This document shows, in pieces, positions 2 to 40,343 of a stretch of 64,000 nt of DNA; the stretch's first letter is position 1; each line of letters begins with the position of its first letter. The notes under the pieces were generated by a model. It saw nothing but the letters and a program-made list of their open reading frames with translations. It was not told where the DNA came from and made no database searches. The DNA comes from a virus (taxonomy: Duplodnaviria; Caudoviricetes): the IMG/VR virus record IMGVR_UViG_3300037851_000141, positions 160,001-224,000 of that record; one strand, given 5' to 3'. The translations under genes and the position numbers were made by a program.

Positions 2-478
2 TTCCAAATAGAAGACGCTAAACAACAAAATACTGAAGTCAAGCATGAGGCAATTACAGCAGTTAAAGAATACTTCCCACCAGAATTTTGTAATCGGTTT
101 GATAGTATAATCGCATTTAACCTATTGACAGAAAAAGATTTACGAAAAATTCTAACCTTACATCTTGATAAATTTCAACAACAAATAATACATACATCAA
201 CACCAATTAAACTCTCATATAAGAAGAAATTTTTAGATTTAGTTATTAAAGAGGGTACAAGTGTTCAACATGGAGCCAGACACTTAAGTAGAGCCATACA
301 GAACTTGGTTATTACCCCTATTTCTAAAATGATTGCCAGTGAACAACTTATTGGTGGGGATAACGTTATATTGACTGTAAATAGAAATAAACCTAAATTT
401 ATAAGAGAAGAACGTACAGATAAACAAATAGAAAATTGGATTAAGAAAAAAGGCAAAAAGAAGCACATCAAATCTTAA
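2..478 (+). CDS. ClpA/ClpB-type AAA+ chaperone, C-terminal part (runs off left edge)
   Basis: Frame open from nt 2; contains FPPEFCNRFDSIIAFNLL and GARHLSRAIQNLV, typical of Clp D2/D2-small domains. Confidence 0.85.
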   Translation, partial: FQIEDAKQQNTEVKHEAITAVKEYFPPEFCNRFDSIIAFNLLTEKDLRKILTLHLDKFQQQIIHTSTPIKLSYKKKFLDLVIKEGTSVQHGARHLSRAIQNLVITPISKMIASEQLIGGDNVILTVNRNKPKFIREERTDKQIENWIKKKGKKKHIKS

Positions 479-503
479 TATAAACATCATAATTTCTTAA
501 TCG

Positions 504-1274
504 TTGTATTGTATAAATCCTGGTATGAAAATCAAAACACTATTCCTATCCGACATACATCTTGGTACCAAATTTTGCCAAGCAAGAAAACTACTACAAT
601 TATTAAAATCATTAGAATCAGAAGATGGAAAACAATATAATGTAGAAAATTTATTCCTCATTGGTGATATTATTGACTTTGAGCATCTAAATAGAAAAAA
701 TGAATGGGCGCATGAACATTGGCAGGTTATTCAGAAATTCCTAAGAATGAGTAGAAAAGGCGTTAATGTAGTTTATATTTCCGGTAATCATGATTTGGCT
801 GTATCTTGGCTCAAAAATCAATCATATGGAAATATCATGTTCAAGGATTCTATGATTTATACAGTAAATAACGGTAGAAAATATCTCTTACTTCATGGAC
901 ATCAGTTTGACACTGCTATACACTCAATGCCTTGGTTATATTGGTTGGGTGATACGTCTTATACCATAGCTCTTTATATAAATTCAATTTTTAGTTCATG
1001 TAGATCGTTGTTTGGATATAAAAGTGAATGGTCTTTATCACATTGGCTTAAATCAAAAGTGAAACAAGTTGTCAAATATGCCTCTGATTATGAAAAATTA
1101 GTTGTAAAATATTGCGAGAAATACGGTTGCGAAGGTATTATATTGGGTCACATCCATATAGCAGCCAATCATAATATTGAAAACATACATTACTTAAATT
1201 GTGGTGCTTGGGTTGAAATGTGTACTGCCGTGGTTGAATATCACGATGGTACTATGGAACTTATCACCTTATAA
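504..1274 (+). CDS. LpxH-like calcineurin-family metallophosphoesterase
   Basis: SDIHLG, GDIID, GNHD, HGH, GHIH motifs. Confidence 0.85.
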   Translation: MYCINPGMKIKTLFLSDIHLGTKFCQARKLLQLLKSLESEDGKQYNVENLFLIGDIIDFEHLNRKNEWAHEHWQVIQKFLRMSRKGVNVVYISGNHDLAVSWLKNQSYGNIMFKDSMIYTVNNGRKYLLLHGHQFDTAIHSMPWLYWLGDTSYTIALYINSIFSSCRSLFGYKSEWSLSHWLKSKVKQVVKYASDYEKLVVKYCEKYGCEGIILGHIHIAANHNIENIHYLNCGAWVEMCTAVVEYHDGTMELITL

Positions 1275-3638: not shown

Positions 3639-4670
3639 ATGTATATCAGTCTGAATCCTTGTCATTCTCAAGAGTTGATTGATGATGTTCTGGCAGTTAT
3701 TGGTGTAGAAGATTTATATGAATTCTATGCTAAATGGTCAGAATCACATAGGTATTTCCATAACTTAGATCATTTATATAGTATTGTAATGGCTGTACAT
3801 GATAAATATAAAAATGATGAACATACGTATGTAGTTTATATGTTGGCCGCGATGTTCCACGATATTGTATATGAACCAAATAGAACAGATAACGAAGTAA
3901 AGAGTGTAGAAGTATTTAATCATTATGTCAATCCATTAGACTTATCCAAGAAAACAATAGATGAAGTCTGTTCTTTGATCTTGGCAACTGCGGATATGAA
4001 TGATGATAACGATTTCAACCAGATGGATCGAAAAATCTTAACAGAAACCTCCATCAGCAAACTCATTGATTACGAACACAAAATCGCTAAAGAATATCAG
4101 TATTTAGATTATCCAACTTATAAGAAAAATCGTATTGAATTCTTAACAAAATGTCTGACTAAGTATCCTAATTTGGCTCCATTAATCGATTATGTACAGA
4201 ATAGAAAAATCTCTGTGGGGTGTTATTTCGGAACCTTCAATCCATTTCACGTAGGGCATTATAATATCTTAGAAAAAGCCAATAAGTTATTTGATAAAGT
4301 TGTTGTTGTTTTAGGGATGAATCCAGATAAATCATATGATCATACTATGAATACTCGGCTAACAACGCTCAAGAATACACTAAAATATTACGAAGTTGAT
4401 GATATGGGCGCTGGAACGCAAGTACATTATATGAATAACATGATTGCGTCTGGTATGTATTCATTGGTGACTGCGATAAAAGGACTAAGAAATGAACGGG
4501 ATTTGGTTGATGGCTTTGAATCAGAATATTGGTCAAAGAAACTCGGTAATTATAATGTTGTTTATCTATCATGTGATGAACAATATAAAAATGTTTCTTC
4601 AAGAGGAATCAATATGTTAAACCGATATGATGCTCGTAAGGCTGAACAGTTAATTTTTAAACCAAAATGA
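3639..4670 (+). CDS. HD-domain / cytidyltransferase-like (CoaD/NadD-type) fusion
   Basis: HNLDH..FHDIVY HD motif; GTFNPFHVGH HIGH motif; C-terminal SSR. Confidence 0.75.
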   Translation: MYISLNPCHSQELIDDVLAVIGVEDLYEFYAKWSESHRYFHNLDHLYSIVMAVHDKYKNDEHTYVVYMLAAMFHDIVYEPNRTDNEVKSVEVFNHYVNPLDLSKKTIDEVCSLILATADMNDDNDFNQMDRKILTETSISKLIDYEHKIAKEYQYLDYPTYKKNRIEFLTKCLTKYPNLAPLIDYVQNRKISVGCYFGTFNPFHVGHYNILEKANKLFDKVVVVLGMNPDKSYDHTMNTRLTTLKNTLKYYEVDDMGAGTQVHYMNNMIASGMYSLVTAIKGLRNERDLVDGFESEYWSKKLGNYNVVYLSCDEQYKNVSSRGINMLNRYDARKAEQLIFKPK

Positions 4671-20457: not shown

Positions 20458-20586
20458 AAAGACTGAATGCCTGAAAGTTTACATTAGGATCTCTTGGTAG
20501 GTGGTTCAATTCCACCCAACCCGCCTCGCGTGGTTGTAGCTCACCGGCAGAGCAGGAGAGTTAACTTTCAACTTTTGTCAGTCTTT
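20458..20586 (+). ncRNA. YrlA-like Y RNA (circularly permuted tRNA mimic)
   Basis: Terminal stem AAAGACTGA/TCAGTCTTT; order T arm (GGTGG-TTCAATT-CCACC), looped acceptor (CAACC/GGTTG), D arm (GCTC-ACCGGCA-GAGC); Ro60 gene in window. Confidence 0.8.
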
Positions 20587-20590
20587 TTAT

Positions 20591-21190: not shown

Positions 21191-21349
21191 ATGAAAGATA
21201 CCAAAGATAATGAAGTAAGAATAAGACTAACAAGTGAAGATAAAAACTTGATTGAAACTAATGCCAAGAACTTCGGATTTGTCTCAGTAAGTGAATACCT
21301 TAGATATATAGGTAAAAACTGTAAAGAAATCAAAATAAAAATCCAATGA
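21191..21349 (+). CDS. ribbon-helix-helix (MobC-like) small protein
   Basis: EVRIRLTSEDKNLIETNAKNFGFVSVSEYLRYIG; GGAG RBS. Confidence 0.7.
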   Translation: MKDTKDNEVRIRLTSEDKNLIETNAKNFGFVSVSEYLRYIGKNCKEIKIKIQ

Positions 21350-22956
21350 TAAAATCTTACTCGTTCTACTGCTCTGACCTTAATAAGAAAAAGACAGATT
21401 TACTCTTACAAAAAGCAGTAGAATTGAGAGATTTTAAGAATCAAATATCTAAAGAAGTTTGTTCTAACTTTAGTTATTTCAACGAGATAAGTAAATTTGA
21501 CTGGATAACTTATTTCAGAACTCAACTTCCAAATTGTAATAATCAAGATATAAGTAATGCTATTTCAGATGTTTATGATAGTTATGAAAATAAACGAAAT
21601 AAGTTTATACAAAATATCTCATTCAAAGTCCAAAAAGAAATAAAATATACTTATTACAAAAATAACGGTAAAACTTATAAAAAAGGTGATGTTCGAGATG
21701 CTGAAGTTATCCTTGGAAGTAATAAGTTTACTAAATGCCTTACCTACTTATGTAGATACTGGAATCCTAACTTTATATCCTGGCTTGAAGAAAATAAAGA
21801 CCTTGATGAAAAGAAAGCCCAACTTCGTAATGATGCTCTGTCTTTGTTTAAGAAATATCCTGAACGAATAACGGTTCTTATTATCTCTCATAGAACCTCA
21901 GTAATAAACGAACTTGTTGAACATCCAATAACGTTCAACTCACTTAGTTTCAGAAGTTGTAATGAACTAAGAACTAAAATACTTAATAGAAATAAGAATC
22001 TCCAGGCTATATTTGGTGCTATTATAACTCTTGGAGGACAGAAAACATCATCAGGCAAACTCCATATTCCTGTAAAATATAGTTACTCTCATCATGGAAA
22101 TATAGATGACTATGATAAATCACCAAACGCTAAAGGGGTCAAAACTATATCATATACAGTCTGCTTCTATAAAAATAAAATAAGATTTGTATTAGGTAAA
22201 ACTGTAGATGATGAACTTCCGATAACTGACAAGAACGAATATTATGGAATTGATCTAAACGTTAAACATAATCTCTTCTGTGATAAACATGGGCAAACTA
22301 TAGATTATGATAGACGTATATTTCAAGATTATGTTAACTTCCTCAAAACCTTAGACTCAAAACATCAATATAAAAAACAACATAATCTCAATCTGGAATT
22401 AAGTAAAAAAGACCAAGACAAGTATGACACTTGGACTTCTCGTATAAAAGATATGTTGAAACGTAAATCTAATCAATTAGTCAAACAAGCAATAACTCAA
22501 GGCAAAAATCACATTGTAATGGAAGACCTTGGACAATTCTGTAAGTCATTTTCAAGATCAGAAGACTTTGACGGTTTCAAGTATTCTAGACTCATAAAGA
22601 TGTTAAATCTATCTGACTTGAAAAACATTGTCAAGTCAATTGCGAATAAACACGGAATTCAAGTCTCATTTGTTCATTCTCATTATACTAGCCAAACTTG
22701 CTCAAAATGTGGATTCATCTCAAGAGAAAATCGTAAATCGCAAGAAACTTTCTCTTGTCTTGAATGTGGACATACTAATAATGCTGATTCCAATTCTGCT
22801 GAAAATATAGAAAATAGAATGTCTGTAGATGATCTACAGGTCAAACTTCTATTGTCAGATAATGGTTCATGCTATCCTAAGAAACTAGGGAAGGCAACTA
22901 TTATCTCTATATTACATGATTACTATTCTCAAAAAGAAATAAACAAATTAGAGTGA
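21346..22956 (+). CDS. tnpB: TnpB / Cas12f-like RNA-guided nuclease (536 aa)
   Basis: RuvC GIDLN, VMEDL, NADSNSA; zinc finger CSKC..CLEC; YTSQTC. Confidence 0.9.
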   Translation: MIKSYSFYCSDLNKKKTDLLLQKAVELRDFKNQISKEVCSNFSYFNEISKFDWITYFRTQLPNCNNQDISNAISDVYDSYENKRNKFIQNISFKVQKEIKYTYYKNNGKTYKKGDVRDAEVILGSNKFTKCLTYLCRYWNPNFISWLEENKDLDEKKAQLRNDALSLFKKYPERITVLIISHRTSVINELVEHPITFNSLSFRSCNELRTKILNRNKNLQAIFGAIITLGGQKTSSGKLHIPVKYSYSHHGNIDDYDKSPNAKGVKTISYTVCFYKNKIRFVLGKTVDDELPITDKNEYYGIDLNVKHNLFCDKHGQTIDYDRRIFQDYVNFLKTLDSKHQYKKQHNLNLELSKKDQDKYDTWTSRIKDMLKRKSNQLVKQAITQGKNHIVMEDLGQFCKSFSRSEDFDGFKYSRLIKMLNLSDLKNIVKSIANKHGIQVSFVHSHYTSQTCSKCGFISRENRKSQETFSCLECGHTNNADSNSAENIENRMSVDDLQVKLLLSDNGSCYPKKLGKATIISILHDYYSQKEINKLE

Positions 22957-23006
22957 TATTTTATCATTCTATGCTGTTTTTAGTAATCATCCAGCGTAAT
23001 TTATAG

Positions 23007-23123
23007 TACTCCTTAGTTCAATGGTAGAACATCGGCCTTGATCGCTATAGGAAGCAATGTAGTTCAAGTCTACAAGTGATCACCATGGAGCCGAGAATGC
23101 TGGTTCGAATCCAGCAGGAGTAA
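23007..23123 (+). tRNA. interrupted tRNA, best reconstructed as tRNA-Gln(TTG), with 46-nt mini-tRNA insert at 23040-23085
   Basis: TACTCCT/AGGAGTA, D arm GTTC/GAAC, TCGGC/GCCGA stem; CTT+TGGA after removal of insert. Confidence 0.75.
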
Positions 23124-23909: not shown

Positions 23910-23993
23910 GGGGCTGTACGCAAACTGGAAAAGCGGCTTGTTTTCTTAGAATTCAAGTGTTTTTGAAGGTTCGATTCCTTTCCAGCCCCACCA
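23910..23993 (+). tRNA. atypical tRNA-Leu(TAG)-like gene with expanded anticodon arm
   Basis: GGGGCTG/CAGCCCC-A-CCA; CTTG-TTTTCTTAGAATT-CAAG; extra C in T stem. Confidence 0.55.
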
Positions 23994-28622: not shown

Positions 28623-28977
28623 GAGATACCCATTTCGTAGTCGTAGGTTGCGTAAGAAATATCGTCAAAAAGAATTTGCTGAATATGGATTTGAGGTATC
28701 TGGAAGTTATTTTGGTGAGTGTAAGTGTTTGTGGTTTGTTAGAGACGAAGTTTTTATAAATTTAGCTGAAATGATTGAAAAAGCCGGGTTTTATTTTGGT
28801 GGTGGATATAATGATAATACTTGGGGTTTTACGTTTGGTAAGTATCGTGGTTCCATTACTTTAGAAGATAAAAATAAGATACTCGAAGAGATTAAAAAGA
28901 TGGAAGGTGCTGGTCTAAAAATTGAAAAAGTTAGTGATTTGATTGACCTTTGGTACGAAAATCGGGATCCAAAATAG
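28612..28977 (+). CDS. yggL: YggL-like (DUF469) ribosome-associated protein
   Basis: RSRRLRKK..EFAEYGFEV and C-terminal LIDLWY. Confidence 0.75.
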   Translation: MKARRYPFRSRRLRKKYRQKEFAEYGFEVSGSYFGECKCLWFVRDEVFINLAEMIEKAGFYFGGGYNDNTWGFTFGKYRGSITLEDKNKILEEIKKMEGAGLKIEKVSDLIDLWYENRDPK

Positions 28978-28980
28978 TTC

Positions 28981-29008
28981 TTGACTTTGATTTTTTGTCG
29001 GCTATAAT
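28981..29008 (+). promoter_or_regulatory. sigma70-type promoter of Ro60 gene
   Basis: TTGACT-N16-TATAAT. Confidence 0.8.
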
Positions 29009-29063
29009 GTTCGTCGCAAAAGCCAATAAACCCTTGTCCCTCCAAGAAAGGAAGGAATGTATC

Positions 29064-30695
29064 ATGGCTAACAAGAATCTTTTCCAATCATCTGCTGGTA
29101 TGGCTCCAATCACTGACGCTCTTAATGAGGCTGGTGGTGTAGCTTATAACCTCTCTGATAAAGCGGCCCTTGCTCAGATGGTGGTTACTGGTTGCTTTAA
29201 TCAGACTTTTTATGCTGATGCCAAAACTCAGCTTGATACTGTGTTGAAGCTGGCAAACAAGGTTCCAACCAAGTTTGTCGCTCAACTGGCGGTATATGCT
29301 CGCACTAATGCTTATATGAAGGATTCTCCTGCGGTTCTTGCTGCTGTGCTGGCAAGTCGTGATATGGGAATGCTGAAGTCTATTTTTGCCACTGTAATTG
29401 ATAATGGCAAGATGGTTCGCAACTTCTGCCAAATCCTTCGTTCTGGTGTTGTTGGTCGCAAGTCATTTGGAACTGCTGCTAAGAAACTGGTTCAAAACTG
29501 GCTGATTAACCGTAAGCCAGAGCAGTTGTTCCGTGATATTGTCGGCAACGATCCTTCTCTGTCAGATGTTATTAAGATGACTCACCCTCATCCAAAGAAC
29601 AAGACTCAAGAGTTTATGTTTGCCTATATCTGTGGTCGAGTCAACATTGAAGTCAAGGGTAATACTTTGACTGCTACCAAGGTGTATAATGGCAAGACTC
29701 AAACCATCAAGTCTGAGAATATTCCAGATATTGTCAGAGATTTTGAGATTTTCAAGGCGAAGAAACTTGCTGGAAAGAGTGCTGGTGAGACTCCAGATGT
29801 GCCTTTCCAAATGTTGTCTTCATTGAATATGGGTACTGCTGAGTGGACTGAAATGGCTCGCAATGGGTCTTGGACGTTTACTCGCATGAATCTGAACAAT
29901 TTCTTGAAGTATGATGTGTTCAAGGATAAAAAGATGGTTGATATGATTGCTGATCGACTTTCTTCATCAACCGAAGTGAAGAAGTCCAGAGTATTCCCAT
30001 ATCAGCTACTTACTGCGTTCAAGTCAGTATCTTCAGAAATGCCAACCAAGATCACCAACGCACTTCAAGATGCTATGGAGATTGCTGTTGGGAACATTCC
30101 TGATCTTGACGGTAAGAAAATCTATGTTTGTGTTGATACCAGTGGAAGCATGCAGAGTGCTGTAACTGGTGATCGTGGCGGTGGTACTACTGCGACAACT
30201 TGTGTTGATGTAGCTGGACTTGTAGCCTCTGCGATTCTGCGTAAAAATCAAGATACCAGCGTAATTCCATTTGATACTGACGTTCACTTGGTTTCTCTTA
30301 ATTCACGGGATAGTGTCATGACCAACGCACAAAAGTTGGCTCTGCGTGGGGGTGGTACTGATTGTTCTTGTGCGCTTCGGTATCTTAACAACATTGAGGC
30401 TAAAGGGGATGTCGTTATCTTTGTCTCTGATAATGAGAGTTGGGCTGATCGTGGATATGGTCGTGGAACCGGAACGCACAACGAATTCCTGAAATTCCGT
30501 AAGCGTAATCCAAATGCGGTTCTGATCAATATCGACATTCAGCCAAACACTTATACTCAAACCAAGGAATCACCTTATATCTTCAATATTGGCGGATTCT
30601 CTGATCAAGTATTTGAGATTATCGCTGCCATTGCCAAAGATAGACTCAATAAGGATTGGTTCGTGACTGAGATTGAAAAAGTTAAGATTGGCTGA
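29064..30695 (+). CDS. rsr: Ro60/Rsr TROVE-domain RNA-binding protein with vWA domain
   Basis: NEAGGVAY..LAQ..TG..NQTFY TROVE start; VDTSGSM, GGTDCS, SDNESW, GGFSD; AAGGAAGGA RBS before 29064. Confidence 0.93.
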   Translation: MANKNLFQSSAGMAPITDALNEAGGVAYNLSDKAALAQMVVTGCFNQTFYADAKTQLDTVLKLANKVPTKFVAQLAVYARTNAYMKDSPAVLAAVLASRDMGMLKSIFATVIDNGKMVRNFCQILRSGVVGRKSFGTAAKKLVQNWLINRKPEQLFRDIVGNDPSLSDVIKMTHPHPKNKTQEFMFAYICGRVNIEVKGNTLTATKVYNGKTQTIKSENIPDIVRDFEIFKAKKLAGKSAGETPDVPFQMLSSLNMGTAEWTEMARNGSWTFTRMNLNNFLKYDVFKDKKMVDMIADRLSSSTEVKKSRVFPYQLLTAFKSVSSEMPTKITNALQDAMEIAVGNIPDLDGKKIYVCVDTSGSMQSAVTGDRGGGTTATTCVDVAGLVASAILRKNQDTSVIPFDTDVHLVSLNSRDSVMTNAQKLALRGGGTDCSCALRYLNNIEAKGDVVIFVSDNESWADRGYGRGTGTHNEFLKFRKRNPNAVLINIDIQPNTYTQTKESPYIFNIGGFSDQVFEIIAAIAKDRLNKDWFVTEIEKVKIG

Positions 30696-32638: not shown

Positions 32639-33979
32639 ATGCCCACTTTTTCGATAAAACACATTCTGGATGAAGCATTTGGTCGTACTGTTGATGACTT
32701 AAATGCTAAACTTGTTCAATTAGCTAAAACCTGGGGTGGTAAAGTATATATTGTTGGTGGTGCCGTTCGTGATGAATTGATGGGCATTAAACCTAAAGAT
32801 ATTGATTACCTTGTCACTAAAATTGAATCATCTGATCTTGCTAAAAAACTACAAAATATTCTTCCTGGTGCCAAGGTAAATGAAGTAGGTAAATCTTTTG
32901 GTATCATAAAACTTGTTGTTGGTGATGATGAATATGATTTTGCTATTCCAAGAGCCGATGTTGATAGAGATAATGTAAAAACTGATCCAAATATCCCGGT
33001 TGAACAAGATTTATTGAGAAGAGACATAACAATAAATTCTATGGCTAAGGATGTTGAAACTGGAGAAATAATATCTGCTTTTGGTGAAGATGGCGTTGCT
33101 GATGTTAAGAATAAGATAATAAAAGCAACAGGCGACCCAAAACAGAGATTTAAGGAAGATCCGTTAAGGATGTTAAGGTGTATACAATTTTCTGCTCGTT
33201 TTGGATTTGATATTGAACCAAACACATTTAAAGCAATTCAAGAACTTAAAGATGATTTCAATCAATTATCAGTAGAACGATTTAGAGACGAATTCTATAA
33301 AGGTTGGACTAAAGGTAATAAAGACACCACGAAATTCTTACAACTATTAGTGGATACTGGTGTAGGTAATCTCTTATTTGGTTCAGATTTTAAGCCTATT
33401 GCCATTGATATAAAGAATAAAGATCCAGAGTCAGCATTCAATGCGCAATATATAGCAATGTTCCTTAATGGCGGCGACCCAACCAGATTAAGCAACTTTA
33501 ACTATGATCATGATTTGATTTTTGTTGCTCGACTCTTAAAATCTTTTATTGATAATGGTATTGATTGGAATGAATTGAAAAAGTTATATAAACATGGAGA
33601 TTTATTCCCAATTATTGCTGAAGCTTTTTATCTTATTGATCCTAAATTGGGTGATAAACTAAAGAGTATGTTATCAAAACCTCTTATACAACGGTTAAAT
33701 AAATCTCGTTGGAATATATGGGAGTTGCCGATTCAAGGTGGAGAAATACTTGAAATAATGGGTGGTAAAATACAAAATAAATCAATACCAGTTGTTATAC
33801 AGAAACTCATAAAAGCCTATCAAAATGGAGAAATAGCAATAAATCCAGATAATGAAGATGAATCTAAAGAACTTGCTAAAAAATATATATCAACTGTACT
33901 GGTAAACGATAAAGATATAAAAGAATCAGATCGTCTTGGTATATTTGAATCAAGAATCTTCAACATTTTCAACCGATAA
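32639..33979 (+). CDS. cca: class II tRNA nucleotidyltransferase (CCA-adding enzyme)
   Basis: VGGAVRD, DIDY, RRDITINSMA, EDPLRMLR..F..RF, ER. Confidence 0.92.
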   Translation: MPTFSIKHILDEAFGRTVDDLNAKLVQLAKTWGGKVYIVGGAVRDELMGIKPKDIDYLVTKIESSDLAKKLQNILPGAKVNEVGKSFGIIKLVVGDDEYDFAIPRADVDRDNVKTDPNIPVEQDLLRRDITINSMAKDVETGEIISAFGEDGVADVKNKIIKATGDPKQRFKEDPLRMLRCIQFSARFGFDIEPNTFKAIQELKDDFNQLSVERFRDEFYKGWTKGNKDTTKFLQLLVDTGVGNLLFGSDFKPIAIDIKNKDPESAFNAQYIAMFLNGGDPTRLSNFNYDHDLIFVARLLKSFIDNGIDWNELKKLYKHGDLFPIIAEAFYLIDPKLGDKLKSMLSKPLIQRLNKSRWNIWELPIQGGEILEIMGGKIQNKSIPVVIQKLIKAYQNGEIAINPDNEDESKELAKKYISTVLVNDKDIKESDRLGIFESRIFNIFNR

Positions 33980-35037: not shown

Positions 35038-35565
35038 ATGGTCCCTTTTCAACAACCTGATCAAAAACAGGCTATGATTAATGAACGAATCTCAGCCAGA
35101 GAAGTCTTATTAATCTCTTCAACCGGCGAGAAGCTTGGAATAATAAATACCAAGGAAGCACTACAAAAAGCAAAAAATGATGGTTTAGATTTGGTTCTTG
35201 TAGCCGAAACATCTAAGCCACCAGTTTGTAAAATAATGGATTATAACAAACTTATTTACGAACAAAAGAAACGCGAAAAGAAAAATGAATCACATGGTAA
35301 AGTCGAGATAAAAGAACTCCGTTTCGGCATCTGTATTCAAGACCATGATCTACAAATTAAGGCTAAACAAGCAAAAGAATTCTTGGAAAAGGGTTGGAGA
35401 GTCAAGTTATCAGTTCAATTCTCTGGTCGCGAAAAACAACATCCCGAATTAGGTATTGATGTCCTAAATCGTTTTATCAAGTTTGTTGGCGAAGATAAAT
35501 CAAAATTCGAGAACCAACCAAGACTTGAGGGACGATACATGAATACATACTTGCTCAAAAAATAA
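35038..35565 (+). CDS. infC: translation initiation factor IF-3
   Basis: INERI, GLDLVLVA..PPVCKIMDY, IKELRF, HDLQIK, GRE, P.LEGR. Confidence 0.95.
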   Translation: MVPFQQPDQKQAMINERISAREVLLISSTGEKLGIINTKEALQKAKNDGLDLVLVAETSKPPVCKIMDYNKLIYEQKKREKKNESHGKVEIKELRFGICIQDHDLQIKAKQAKEFLEKGWRVKLSVQFSGREKQHPELGIDVLNRFIKFVGEDKSKFENQPRLEGRYMNTYLLKK

Positions 35566-37790: not shown

Positions 37791-37907
37791 GCTGGTTTAG
37801 CTCAGGGGTAGAGCAGTTGTTTTGCTGGAATATAGGAAAGCAAGACGGTTCGAGTCCGTCATTCTGGAATAAACAACAGGTCGGGGGTTCAAATCCCTCA
37901 ACCAGCA
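37791..37907 (+). tRNA. interrupted tRNA, best reconstructed as tRNA-Thr(TGT), with 45-nt mini-tRNA insert at 37825-37869
   Basis: GCTGGTT/AACCAGC, GCTC/GAGC D arm, GTTGT/ACAAC stem, AGGTC variable loop; TTTG+TAA after removal. Confidence 0.8.
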
Positions 37908-38847: not shown

Positions 38848-38953
38848 GCTGCGTTGACAGATCGGTTATGTGCTAGCCTTCCCGAGAAAAGGAGCCTAAA
38901 GCTTTAATTCTCGACCAAAGCTAGAAAGGCGGGTTCGATTCCCGCACGCGGCT
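38848..38953 (+). tRNA. interrupted tRNA, best reconstructed as tRNA-Gly(TCC), with 35-nt minihelix-ACCA insert at 38883-38917
   Basis: GCTGCGT/ACGCGGC, U73, CTAGC/GCTAG stem; CTTCC+AA after removal. Confidence 0.75.
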
Positions 38954-39026
38954 TAGATAGTTTAGTGTGGTGTTTTTTGAGAAATAAGAACGATTGGCTG
39001 GTCGGAAGCTACCAAGAGTTAGTGAT

Positions 39027-40343
39027 TTAGTTATCAACTGTTATCACTTTGGTTGTTGGGTCAAGATGGACTCTAAGCTCATCTCCGTCCAGAGTATAGA
39101 AACCAGTTTCCTTCCAGTAGAAACCCTTCCTATTTAACTCTAACTTACGTAATTTGGGAGGTATGTCGGGTAAGGTCTGTTCGTGGTTGCACGACGCATT
39201 ATAGTCTGCGTCGTCAGAAAAGCCACAACCTCGACAGATGTAAATCTTACCCTTCCTATTACTCTTACGTACCAATCCGCAACAACTACACCGTTGACTT
39301 CTGTAAGTACAAGACTGTAAAGTGAAGTGGACCCCAGCCTCTTCACAGCGGCTACTTACTTTGTCTCTGATGAGTGTGTTTGTCCAGTGGGACATCTTAC
39401 GACTCGTTCTACGACCATAGTTTATGTTATTTATCTCTTCCAACTTTAGATGCTTGATGTTCATTAAGTTTAGTTGGTTGACTGACCAATTAATGAAGTT
39501 CTCACGGTGAGATTGGGCTTTAAGGAAGGCTCGACTTCCTTTACGTTTGGCACTCAATTTATCTATAATAGAATCTAATGAGTGTCCATGAGAGTCTGTC
39601 TTTGGTGTTGTTTGTCTGTCCGACAACGATATTATTGTCAATTTACCTTGGTCAGCACCAACATCAACACCTTTGGTCTTAGGTGGAACATCTTTTTCCC
39701 ACCGTAGATTTACGAAGTTGGTTCCGATGAGGAACGAGTTGAGCATCTTCCAATCAGCATATTTTGAGTTATGTTTGTGGAATCTTATAGGTAGTTTGAT
39801 ATGACCATATTCATCACCGATACATTTGAGTCTGAGGACTCCGTTGAAATATGATGTATTTTGGGTTGGTTCCCAATCTATACATTTGCTTGATAATTCT
39901 GGGTTGATATTACTAAGATCAGGCTTTAGAGCCTGGAATTTCTGTAGATTTTGATATAGTCTCTCATTATAAACTCCTTCATCACAGAGTTTATTGAATA
40001 CCCATAATCTTCGTCTACGGACTTCCGTAGTTGCTGATATACATCCAGCAACCTGAGTTACCAGAGAGGATAATGCTCGGGCTGATAGTGGAGTTTGAAT
40101 ACCAAACAATTTGTAATCTATGAAACTTGGAGTTTCAAGGTTATCATCTTTGATAGAGAACTGATGCTCTGTAGATACTCCAGTTTCTTTATTTGTAGTA
40201 GTCCACTTGTATCCATGTTCCCAAATAAGGTCAACTATGAGTTGCCCAACTCTACGATACTCGGCAATAAACTTGTTCAACTTGTCAAGTTTATTCTTAT
40301 TTGTATCTTTAAGAGAATGAGAAGTTGACCGTATAGTAGTCAT
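39027..40343 (-). CDS. tnpB: TnpB RNA-guided nuclease (438 aa)
   Basis: RuvC GADQG, LEEIN, DADYNAS; YRSQRCSCC..CRGC. Confidence 0.88.
   Translation of the reverse strand: MTTIRSTSHSLKDTNKNKLDKLNKFIAEYRRVGQLIVDLIWEHGYKWTTTNKETGVSTEHQFSIKDDNLETPSFIDYKLFGIQTPLSARALSSLVTQVAGCISATTEVRRRRLWVFNKLCDEGVYNERLYQNLQKFQALKPDLSNINPELSSKCIDWEPTQNTSYFNGVLRLKCIGDEYGHIKLPIRFHKHNSKYADWKMLNSFLIGTNFVNLRWEKDVPPKTKGVDVGADQGKLTIISLSDRQTTPKTDSHGHSLDSIIDKLSAKRKGSRAFLKAQSHRENFINWSVNQLNLMNIKHLKLEEINNINYGRRTSRKMSHWTNTLIRDKVSSRCEEAGVHFTLQSCTYRSQRCSCCGLVRKSNRKGKIYICRGCGFSDDADYNASCNHEQTLPDIPPKLRKLELNRKGFYWKETGFYTLDGDELRVHLDPTTKVITVDN

Follow-up and report, generated by a model that had tools for sequence, protein, structure and literature searches.

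A conserved 35-nucleotide, minihelix-like candidate intron in the tRNA-Gly(UCC) gene of a large freshwater phage

Self-splicing introns of group I, and rarely of group II, are thought to be the only means by which bacteria and their phages splice tRNAs. A different way of joining RNA within the anticodon loop is found in the tRNA repair of phage T4, in which the anticodon nuclease PrrC is countered by Pnkp and Rnl1, the latter of which mends anticodon loops. Most bacterial RNase Z enzymes, which process tRNA 3′ ends, are inhibited by CCA. A class of short, tRNA-shaped introns has already been noticed in large phages: Devoto et al. 2019 (PMC6784885) described introns in the tRNAs of Lak megaphages, termed these introns enigmatic, remarked of a tRNA-Thr intron that it "itself may encode a tRNA," and stated that they knew of no earlier report of introns in phage tRNAs. 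In our literature search, no paper was found that proposes or tests a mechanism for such introns. Two properties of tRNA end-processing enzymes bear on the locus described here: a plain stem of 13 to 16 bp is cut by bacterial RNase P where the single strand meets the helix, a cut for which a 3′ RCCA is essential (PMC4693268), and the Thermotoga-type RNase Z cuts after CCA (PMC3161902).

The DNA analyzed, hereafter the window, is a stretch of 64,000 nucleotides (bases 160001 to 224000) of a 331,849-bp IMG/VR virus record, which is 92% complete as estimated with CheckV, has a G+C content of ~34% and represents a freshwater phage of 332 kb. Window positions 38848 to 38953 (106 nt, + strand) form the complete cloverleaf of a bacterial-type tRNA-Gly(UCC) gene. 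Rfam model RF00005 matched this segment with 42.4 bits (cut-off, 29; E 4.5e-8) over model positions 1 to 71, and the surplus letters in the alignment fall inside the anticodon loop. The 5′ exon (38848 to 38882), assigned from sequence, RF00005 and covarying helices, contains the acceptor 5′ strand GCTGCGT (38848 to 38854), a D arm with A14, G18 and G19 (38857 to 38871), the anticodon stem 5′ strand CTAGC (38873 to 38877) and the loop letters CTTCC (38878 to 38882), with the anticodon TCC at 38880 to 38882. The 3′ exon (38918 to 38953), assigned from sequence, RF00005 and covariation, starts with A37 and A38 and continues with the anticodon stem 3′ strand GCTAG (38920 to 38924), the variable loop AAAG, the T arm GCGGG-TTCGATT-CCCGC (38929 to 38945), the acceptor 3′ strand ACGCGGC (38946 to 38952) and the discriminator U73 (38953). 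The acceptor stem has 7 bp, including one U·G at pair 3-70. The initial annotation had named G1-C72, C2-G71 and U73 as glycine identity elements, and these are indeed present in the sequence; the full identity set, which also includes C35 and C36, is likewise found in two further genes, described below. The gene encodes no CCA at its own 3′ end, so that the CCA-adding enzyme of the phage is needed to complete the tRNA.

This gene is the sole tRNA-Gly of the 332-kb record (ARAGORN with introns allowed), which has a near-complete tRNA set. GGA makes up 31% of the glycine codons of the phage (19 per 1000 codons), and tRNA-Gly, like its insert-bearing sisters, is a U34 tRNA whose A-ending codon is in heavy use in the phage. 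Neither default ARAGORN nor cmscan in gathering mode called the gene, and the failure of default tools on such genes is a practical reason why they stay unannotated. Within the gene, the anticodon loop is 42 nt long instead of the canonical 7. A loop of 42 nt cannot decode, and the insert must therefore go if the tRNA is used.

The insert, a candidate intron of 35 nt at 38883 to 38917 (+ strand), lies exactly between C36 and A37 and was delimited on the basis of its fold, two copies of the same design and intron-less homologues. An interrupted hairpin plus ACCA at this very site had been proposed in the initial annotation, and the sequence, the fold and two independent copies bear it out. The hairpin comprises an outer stem of 6 bp (38883 to 38888/38908 to 38913), which is paired in all three sequences, an A·A/A·A internal loop, an inner stem of 5 bp with two G·U pairs (38891 to 38895/38901 to 38905), for which sequence and covariation speak, and the pentaloop CUAAA (38896 to 38900). 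The ACCA tail (38914 to 38917), which consists of a discriminator-like A and CCA, follows directly, its last base abutting A37. The insert starts flush with the helix, C38883 being paired with G38913, and its removal leaves the 7-nt loop CTTCCAA with the anticodon UCC; among the placements that leave a 7-nt loop, only 38883 to 38917 is both helix-flush and CCA-ended. The junctions fall in single strands of 5 and 6 nt beside the hairpin.

The dimensions of the insert, 13 + 5 + 13 nt plus 4 (equivalently, 12 layers with a 7-nt tip), are those of a canonical acceptor-stem/T-arm minihelix (31 + 4 nt). Its 13 helix layers (11 standard pairs and two A·A), followed by ACCA, fit the layout of RNase P substrates of the hairpin or external-guide-sequence (EGS) type. 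The T-loop consensus UUCRANY and a GG-containing linker are both absent, and the tip reads C-CUAAA-G. Folded alone, the insert reached −11.5 kcal/mol (z −3.8), a value equaled by 1 of 200 shuffles, and the whole precursor was predicted to fold into the cloverleaf plus the hairpin (MFE −38.1 kcal/mol, z −2.5). No second copy of the 35-mer was found in the 64-kb window.

The boundaries of the insert are fixed by intron-less homologues, since the anticodon loop reads CTTCCAA in the uninterrupted tRNA-Gly(UCC) genes of Synechococcus phage S-RIM8, Xanthomonas jumbo phage Xoo-sp13 and record G003. The 5′ half of the interrupted gene in contig L004, one of the two further genes, matched the annotated tRNA-Gly of S-RIM8 at 89% and the tRNA-Gly of Xoo-sp13 at 96%. 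The Xoo-sp13 gene is itself unannotated (L174; MN047793.1, about 40169 to 40243). When introns were allowed, ARAGORN did call the gene in the window, as SeC(tca) with the insert misplaced; this call was rejected because the segment that it would remove has no CCA end and is not helix-flush, and because the resulting loop is unlike that of the intron-less homologues.

Presence and absence of the insert could be compared at one and the same slot. The flanks of the L004 gene are 93 to 98% identical to those in G003 (fetched as L178), and the slot that holds the interrupted gene in L004 holds an intron-less tRNA-Gly(UCC) in G003, whose D arm resembles that of the window gene and which is 78% identical to the window exons. 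By exon similarity, interrupted and uninterrupted tRNA-Gly genes are interleaved. Within the low resolution of 71 nt, a single old insertion appears to account for this interleaving less well than gain, loss or the exchange of cassettes. For the 90 to 95% relative in run X2, no 35-nt joint was seen among the matches listed.

Pattern scans of IMG/VR and JGI metagenomes recovered two more tRNA-Gly(UCC) genes, L004:25-130:- (=L140) and L141:458-563:-, in which this site likewise holds an insert of 35 nt. Most matches of these scans were chance or coding, the true Gly-type matches being only L004 (=L140) and L141; L126, L127 and L128 were set aside on inspection because they are not tRNA-Gly. Pattern scanning of 185,579 species genomes found no Gly-type insert, no insert-bearing tRNA-Gly of this type was found in GenBank phages, and the CCTAAAG tip was not found in other tRNAs by pattern scan. 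L004 and L141 are metagenomic phage contigs that share no protein similarity with the 332-kb genome, a marginal match of 57 aa in L004 excepted. Over 106 columns, the three precursors can be aligned gap-free, with identities of 68 to 83% for the exons and 51 to 74% for the inserts. The insert is more than a product of chance, as two independent copies in other phages preserve its 35-nt architecture with compensatory changes.

Pairing on the named structure amounted to 91% of cells versus 73% in shuffles, with none of 500 shuffles reaching the observed value, and fell to 37 to 45% when the pair partners were shifted by 1 to 3 columns. All 6 pairs of the outer stem are kept in the three sequences, 3 of them with both sides changed, and the three loop-proximal pairs of the inner stem are 100% kept, with both sides changed in 2, so that, in total, 5 of the 9 always-paired pairs of the insert carry a change in each strand. 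Pairing is irregular in the four layers at the middle of the helix. In all three members, the CUAAA loop, the C-G pair that closes it and the ACCA tail are identical, and RNAalifold predicted the same hairpin when no structure was supplied. As judged from these three sequences only, the pattern looks like the product of selection on RNA structure, unlike a decaying insertion, and purifying selection acts on the tRNA-Gly gene as a tRNA. The tip C-CUAAA-G stays invariant while the stems covary, which indicates that something reads the tip or needs its shape. Overall, we are all but sure that this is a structured insert under selection in a genuine tRNA-Gly.

Inserts of a related design are found in other tRNA genes of the same genome. 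A tRNA-Gln(UUG) at 23007 to 23123 (+) carries a 46-nt insert with acceptor, linker, T-arm and ACCA segments (23040 to 23085), as identified from the sequence and from its counterpart in the X2 relative, where the Gln slot holds an intron-less tRNA-Gln, giving the joint CTT|TGGA. A further tRNA, most likely Thr UGU, at 37791 to 37907 (+) has a 45-nt T-arm insert without CCA at about 37825 to 37869, which the X2 relative keeps, and a tRNA-Arg(UCU) outside the window has an insert of 48 nt. Each of these three inserts contains a 7-bp acceptor-like stem, a linker of 10 to 13 nt with A(U/A)AGGAA and a T arm with a UUCRANU loop; those of Gln and Arg end in NCCA, a tail that the Thr insert lacks. As a structural model, the GG of the linker could imitate G18 G19 and, together with the T loop, make up an elbow. 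In the window, a weak tRNA match of 81 nt (23910 to 23990; 34.7 bits) was also seen that is absent from the ARAGORN calls.

The Gly insert resembles these 45- to 48-nt sisters in that it begins with the first base of a helix, ends with CCA and leaves a 7-nt loop when taken out, and all four reside in U34 tRNAs for A-ending codons. It differs from them in being 10 to 13 nt shorter, in lacking the A(U/A)AGGAA linker and in carrying CCUAAAG in place of UUCRANU; it is the sister design minus the linker and with the T-loop sequence replaced. Homology at the sequence level to the T-arm inserts was considered for the Gly insert and rejected, as the only resemblance is a chance-level AAGGA that is absent from the L004 and L141 members. 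The initial description of the Gly insert as a minimal version of the same element holds for the shared layout (helix start, NCCA end and restored 7-nt loop), and its word "reduced" is less apt, the insert being better described as a strict 31 + 4-nt minihelix.

Still smaller inserts, of 22 nt and consisting of a 6- to 7-bp hairpin plus GCCA, were observed in L178 (G003:C1) at 81666 to 81761 (-) and 90385 to 90479 (-) and in L004 at 428 to 522 (-). These microhelix-sized inserts are hosted by a probable tRNA-Pro(UGG) and a probable tRNA-Arg(UCU); the Arg copies of L004 and G003 differ at one position, U·G to U-A, which keeps the pair. They co-occur with a T-arm insert in both L004 and G003 and with the 35-nt Gly insert in L004. 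Their existence makes helix plus NCCA the common denominator across sizes. The CCA-bearing inserts examined all span the first base of a helix to CCA, the L004 Asn insert being a partial exception in that its first acceptor-like pair is A·C. The proposal that stem and NCCA are essential and the T loop dispensable is partly supported by the lack of a T-loop consensus and by the 22-nt helix-plus-GCCA inserts, the linker being likewise dispensable, and has to be qualified by the invariance of the tip C-CUAAA-G, which makes the apical loop more than filler.

The site of insertion within the anticodon varies among 34|35, 35|36 and 36|37, even between homologous inserts: the 46-nt Gln insert sits at 34|35 in the window (23040 to 23085, CTT|TGGA) and at 35|36 in the tRNA-Gln of G003 (L178 [G003:C1] 82721 to 82837, -; CTTT|GGA), and both joints restore CTTTGGA. 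This variable position suggests that the recognizer reads the insert and not the exon context. Among randomly fetched IMG/VR contigs, T-arm-type inserts were noted in L113 at 325 to 444 (-; His GUG, 46 nt without CCA) and in L023 at 3994 to 4128 (+; tRNA-Thr, 53 nt), and ~5 of 112 tRNAs in 1.2 Mb of sampled viral DNA were interrupted.

Apart from ~25 tRNA genes, the record contains genes for Ro60, Y-like RNAs, a CCA-adding enzyme, IF3, an Rnl1-type (403 aa) and an Rnl2-type (335 aa) RNA ligase (L170:432-1643:- and L171:273-1280:-) and a P-loop kinase, the CCA-adding enzyme/poly(A) polymerase family gene being located at 32639 to 33979 (+; Pfam PF01743, E 5e-23, and PF12627). Within or near the tRNA array, we also observed a YrlA-like RNA (20460 to 20587; 47.6 bits, under the cut-off of 69), the Ro60/TROVE protein (28950 to 30695) and IF3 (35038 to 35565). 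Upstream of tRNA-Gly lies a 263-aa ORF with homologues at ≤46% identity. The gene tables of three contigs from distant relatives revealed a conserved order of Ro60, Rnl2, CCA-adding enzyme, IF3, the 263-aa ORF, a gap and a helicase, and a protein search of IMG/VR with the RecQ-like helicase as the query found no relatives.

The insert is probably removed at the RNA level. At a little under an even chance, we favor the reading that the gene yields a functional tRNA-Gly(UCC) with an intron that imitates an acceptor/T-arm minihelix and is spliced by proteins or RNPs, namely, RNase P, a 3′ nuclease and an Rnl ligase. According to this scheme, host RNase P would take the insert for the top half of a tRNA and, guided by the 13-layer helix and the RCCA under the same rule as for EGS duplexes, would cut at 38882|38883, where C36 adjoins the C with which the insert begins. 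An endonuclease of 3′-end processing that cuts after CCA (RNase Z/BN-like or another phage or host enzyme) would then free the 35-nt minihelix. Both cuts would leave 3′-OH and 5′-phosphate ends, which could be held together by the anticodon stem and sealed by the phage Rnl1 or Rnl2, whereupon the phage CCA-adding enzyme would complete the 3′ end of the tRNA. RNase P and RNase Z products do carry a 3′-OH and a 5′-phosphate, and such ends are joined by ligases of the Rnl1 and Rnl2 types. With recognition inside the intron itself, the sites 34|35, 35|36 and 36|37 and the sizes of 22, 35 and 45 to 48 nt would all be explained.

The cut predicted for RNase P coincides exactly with the 5′ boundary of the insert. 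The cut after CCA is the weakest link of the route; no RNase Z-like metallo-beta-lactamase is encoded by the phage, and the CCA of the insert is internal, with 36 nt of exon downstream, which also counts against the route. A further point against it is that the invariant CUAAA tip is not required by the RNase P/EGS rule, and this tip hints at another reader. The irregular layers in the middle of the helix weigh against the route as well.

Such a reader is at the center of the main rival to the RNase P route, which holds that a dedicated endonuclease of phage or host origin reads the hairpin, especially C-CUAAA-G, measures down the helix and cuts both junctions, leaving a ligase to seal the exons and RNase P uninvolved. 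We consider it unlikely, despite the invariance of the tip and its closing pair in three members with diverged stems, the length fixed at 13 + 5 + 13 + 4 nt in 3 of 3, the missing phage enzyme of RNase Z type for the cut after CCA and the wealth of uncharacterized and homing-type nuclease genes in insert-bearing tRNA arrays. A tip-reading nuclease leaves the constant RCCA tail unexplained, these phages also have sister inserts that follow an identical boundary rule with other tips (T-loops, CTAATA and AACA), and no candidate gene was found.

It is quite unlikely that the insert is never removed, the gene then specifying a 106-nt non-decoding tRNA-like RNA (a decoy for anticodon nucleases or tRNA-targeting defenses, or a partner of Ro60 in the manner of Y RNA) or being inactivated. 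The non-decoding, tRNA-shaped species 1 and 2 RNAs of T4 are a precedent for the former, and Ro60 and Y-like RNAs are located in the same array. Retention is nevertheless hard to reconcile with the canonical U33-UCC-A37 loop that removal produces, as in the intron-less homologues, with purifying selection on the glycine identity elements and the four tRNA helices, and with the standing of this gene as the sole tRNA-Gly, for a heavily used codon, in a near-complete tRNA set; a pseudogene, moreover, would not keep compensatory changes.

We regard as very unlikely the view that the hairpin is mainly a selfish DNA element that targets the anticodon loop of tRNA-Gly(UCC), such as the footprint of a homing event, a miniature palindromic insertion or an end related to IS200/IS605-TnpB, its shape as RNA being secondary. 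Two TnpB-like ORFs (Cas12f1-like TNB, OrfB_IS605) were observed in the window at 21346 to 22956 (+) and 39027 to 40343 (-), each ending 50 to 75 nt from an insert-bearing tRNA (Gln and Gly, respectively), with omega-RNA guides that would overlap or adjoin the tRNA genes. The proximity of the second (74 nt from tRNA-Gly) speaks for a selfish origin, as do the interleaving of interrupted and intron-less tRNA-Gly genes and the different Gly genes in one slot of L004 and its 93 to 98% identical relative G003, interrupted in the former and uninterrupted in the latter. Against it, the X2 relative has almost no depth over 38926 to 40227 while the neighboring regions are covered, from which the Gly-side TnpB looks recently arrived, there is no TnpB near the L141 copy, and the covariation is of an RNA type, including G·U pairs, with a strand-specific ACCA. 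The specific proposal that the hairpin is a TnpB end was rejected on the near-empty TnpB region in X2, the absence of TnpB by L141 and the single copy of the 35-mer in the window. Upstream of tRNA-Gln, the 12-nt CATCCAGCGTAA (22988 to 22999) equals the 3′ end of the intron-less tRNA-Gln of X2; by sequence, it looks like what is left of an older tRNA-Gln that gave way when the TnpB element, the intron-bearing tRNA-Gln or both arrived. An element of this kind may be both mobile and spliced.

That the insert is a self-cleaving or self-splicing ribozyme is highly improbable even with a classical group I intron in the tRNA-Lys(UUU) of the same genome, since 35 nt is far shorter than any self-splicing intron, the fold is a plain hairpin and a search with lax filters gave no match to an Rfam ribozyme or intron family at E ≤ 1. 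Specifically, a group I intron was rejected, as 35 nt hold no P3-P8 core (usually >200 nt) and gave no Rfam match. The tRNA-Lys gene (G000:C1:316550-316852, -), which lies outside the window, has a 227-nt insert after position 37 that matched RF00028 with 49.1 bits (E 2e-12), slightly below the cut-off of 50, and this match indicates that the Rfam intron search works; the phage therefore has a classical self-splicing tRNA intron alongside the minihelix type. A bulge-helix-bulge (BHB) intron was rejected for want of BHB geometry and of EndA (PF01974) in the phage, the controls having been detected, and a terminator inside the gene because no T run follows the hairpin and a terminator scan found none.

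What is new here is a conserved 35-nt member of the class that has neither T-loop nor linker and is specific to tRNA-Gly(UCC), together with a size series of 22, 35 and 45 to 48 nt within single phages. The Gly insert amounts to a natural deletion experiment, in which the T-loop consensus and the elbow linker are gone and the minihelix length, flush helix and RCCA are kept in three phages by clear purifying selection, and it narrows the candidate recognition signal to the known needs of bacterial RNase P. With the 106-nt substrate, the proposed pathway of RNase P, 3′ nuclease and Rnl ligase can be tested directly. Tentatively, large phages of bacteria may splice tRNAs in a third way, distinct from ribozyme and BHB splicing, with an intron that is a cut-out signal assembled from tRNA end-processing determinants; in that case, the Gly and 22-nt inserts would demonstrate that nothing beyond a bare helix and RCCA is required, and the excised minihelix, 5′-phosphorylated and CCA-ended, may be a useful product, for example, a decoy for enzymes or defenses that act on tRNA acceptor ends. 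As standard tRNA finders miss or misassign such genes, phage tRNA repertoires are undercounted, in this case by the sole tRNA-Gly.

Compared with the Lak introns, the Gly insert is likewise short and lies in the anticodon region of its tRNA gene, with alleles that have and do not have it, and it comes from another phage lineage and another tRNA (Gly UCC). As far as the descriptions go, the two are set apart by structure, the Lak example being tRNA-like and the Gly insert a bare 12- to 13-layer hairpin plus ACCA with no T-loop consensus or linker. With the minihelix and EGS substrates of RNase P (PMC4693268), it shares a plain helix of ~13 layers, a single-stranded RCCA and a cut site equal to its 5′ boundary; those substrates, however, are engineered and used in vitro with a free 3′ end, whereas the CCA of the Gly insert is internal and followed by the 3′ exon. 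The T4 repair system offers a parallel in the joining of an anticodon loop by an Rnl1-family ligase, and the phage here has Rnl1, Rnl2 and a kinase. T4, however, mends damage and removes nothing, whereas here excision must come first, and the part given to the ligase is suggested by gene presence alone. Like group I and BHB tRNA introns, the Gly insert is an intervening sequence of the anticodon loop whose removal restores the tRNA; unlike them, it has no ribozyme core, no BHB geometry and no phage EndA, and its recognition is apparently borne by the intron itself and not by a helix between exon and intron.
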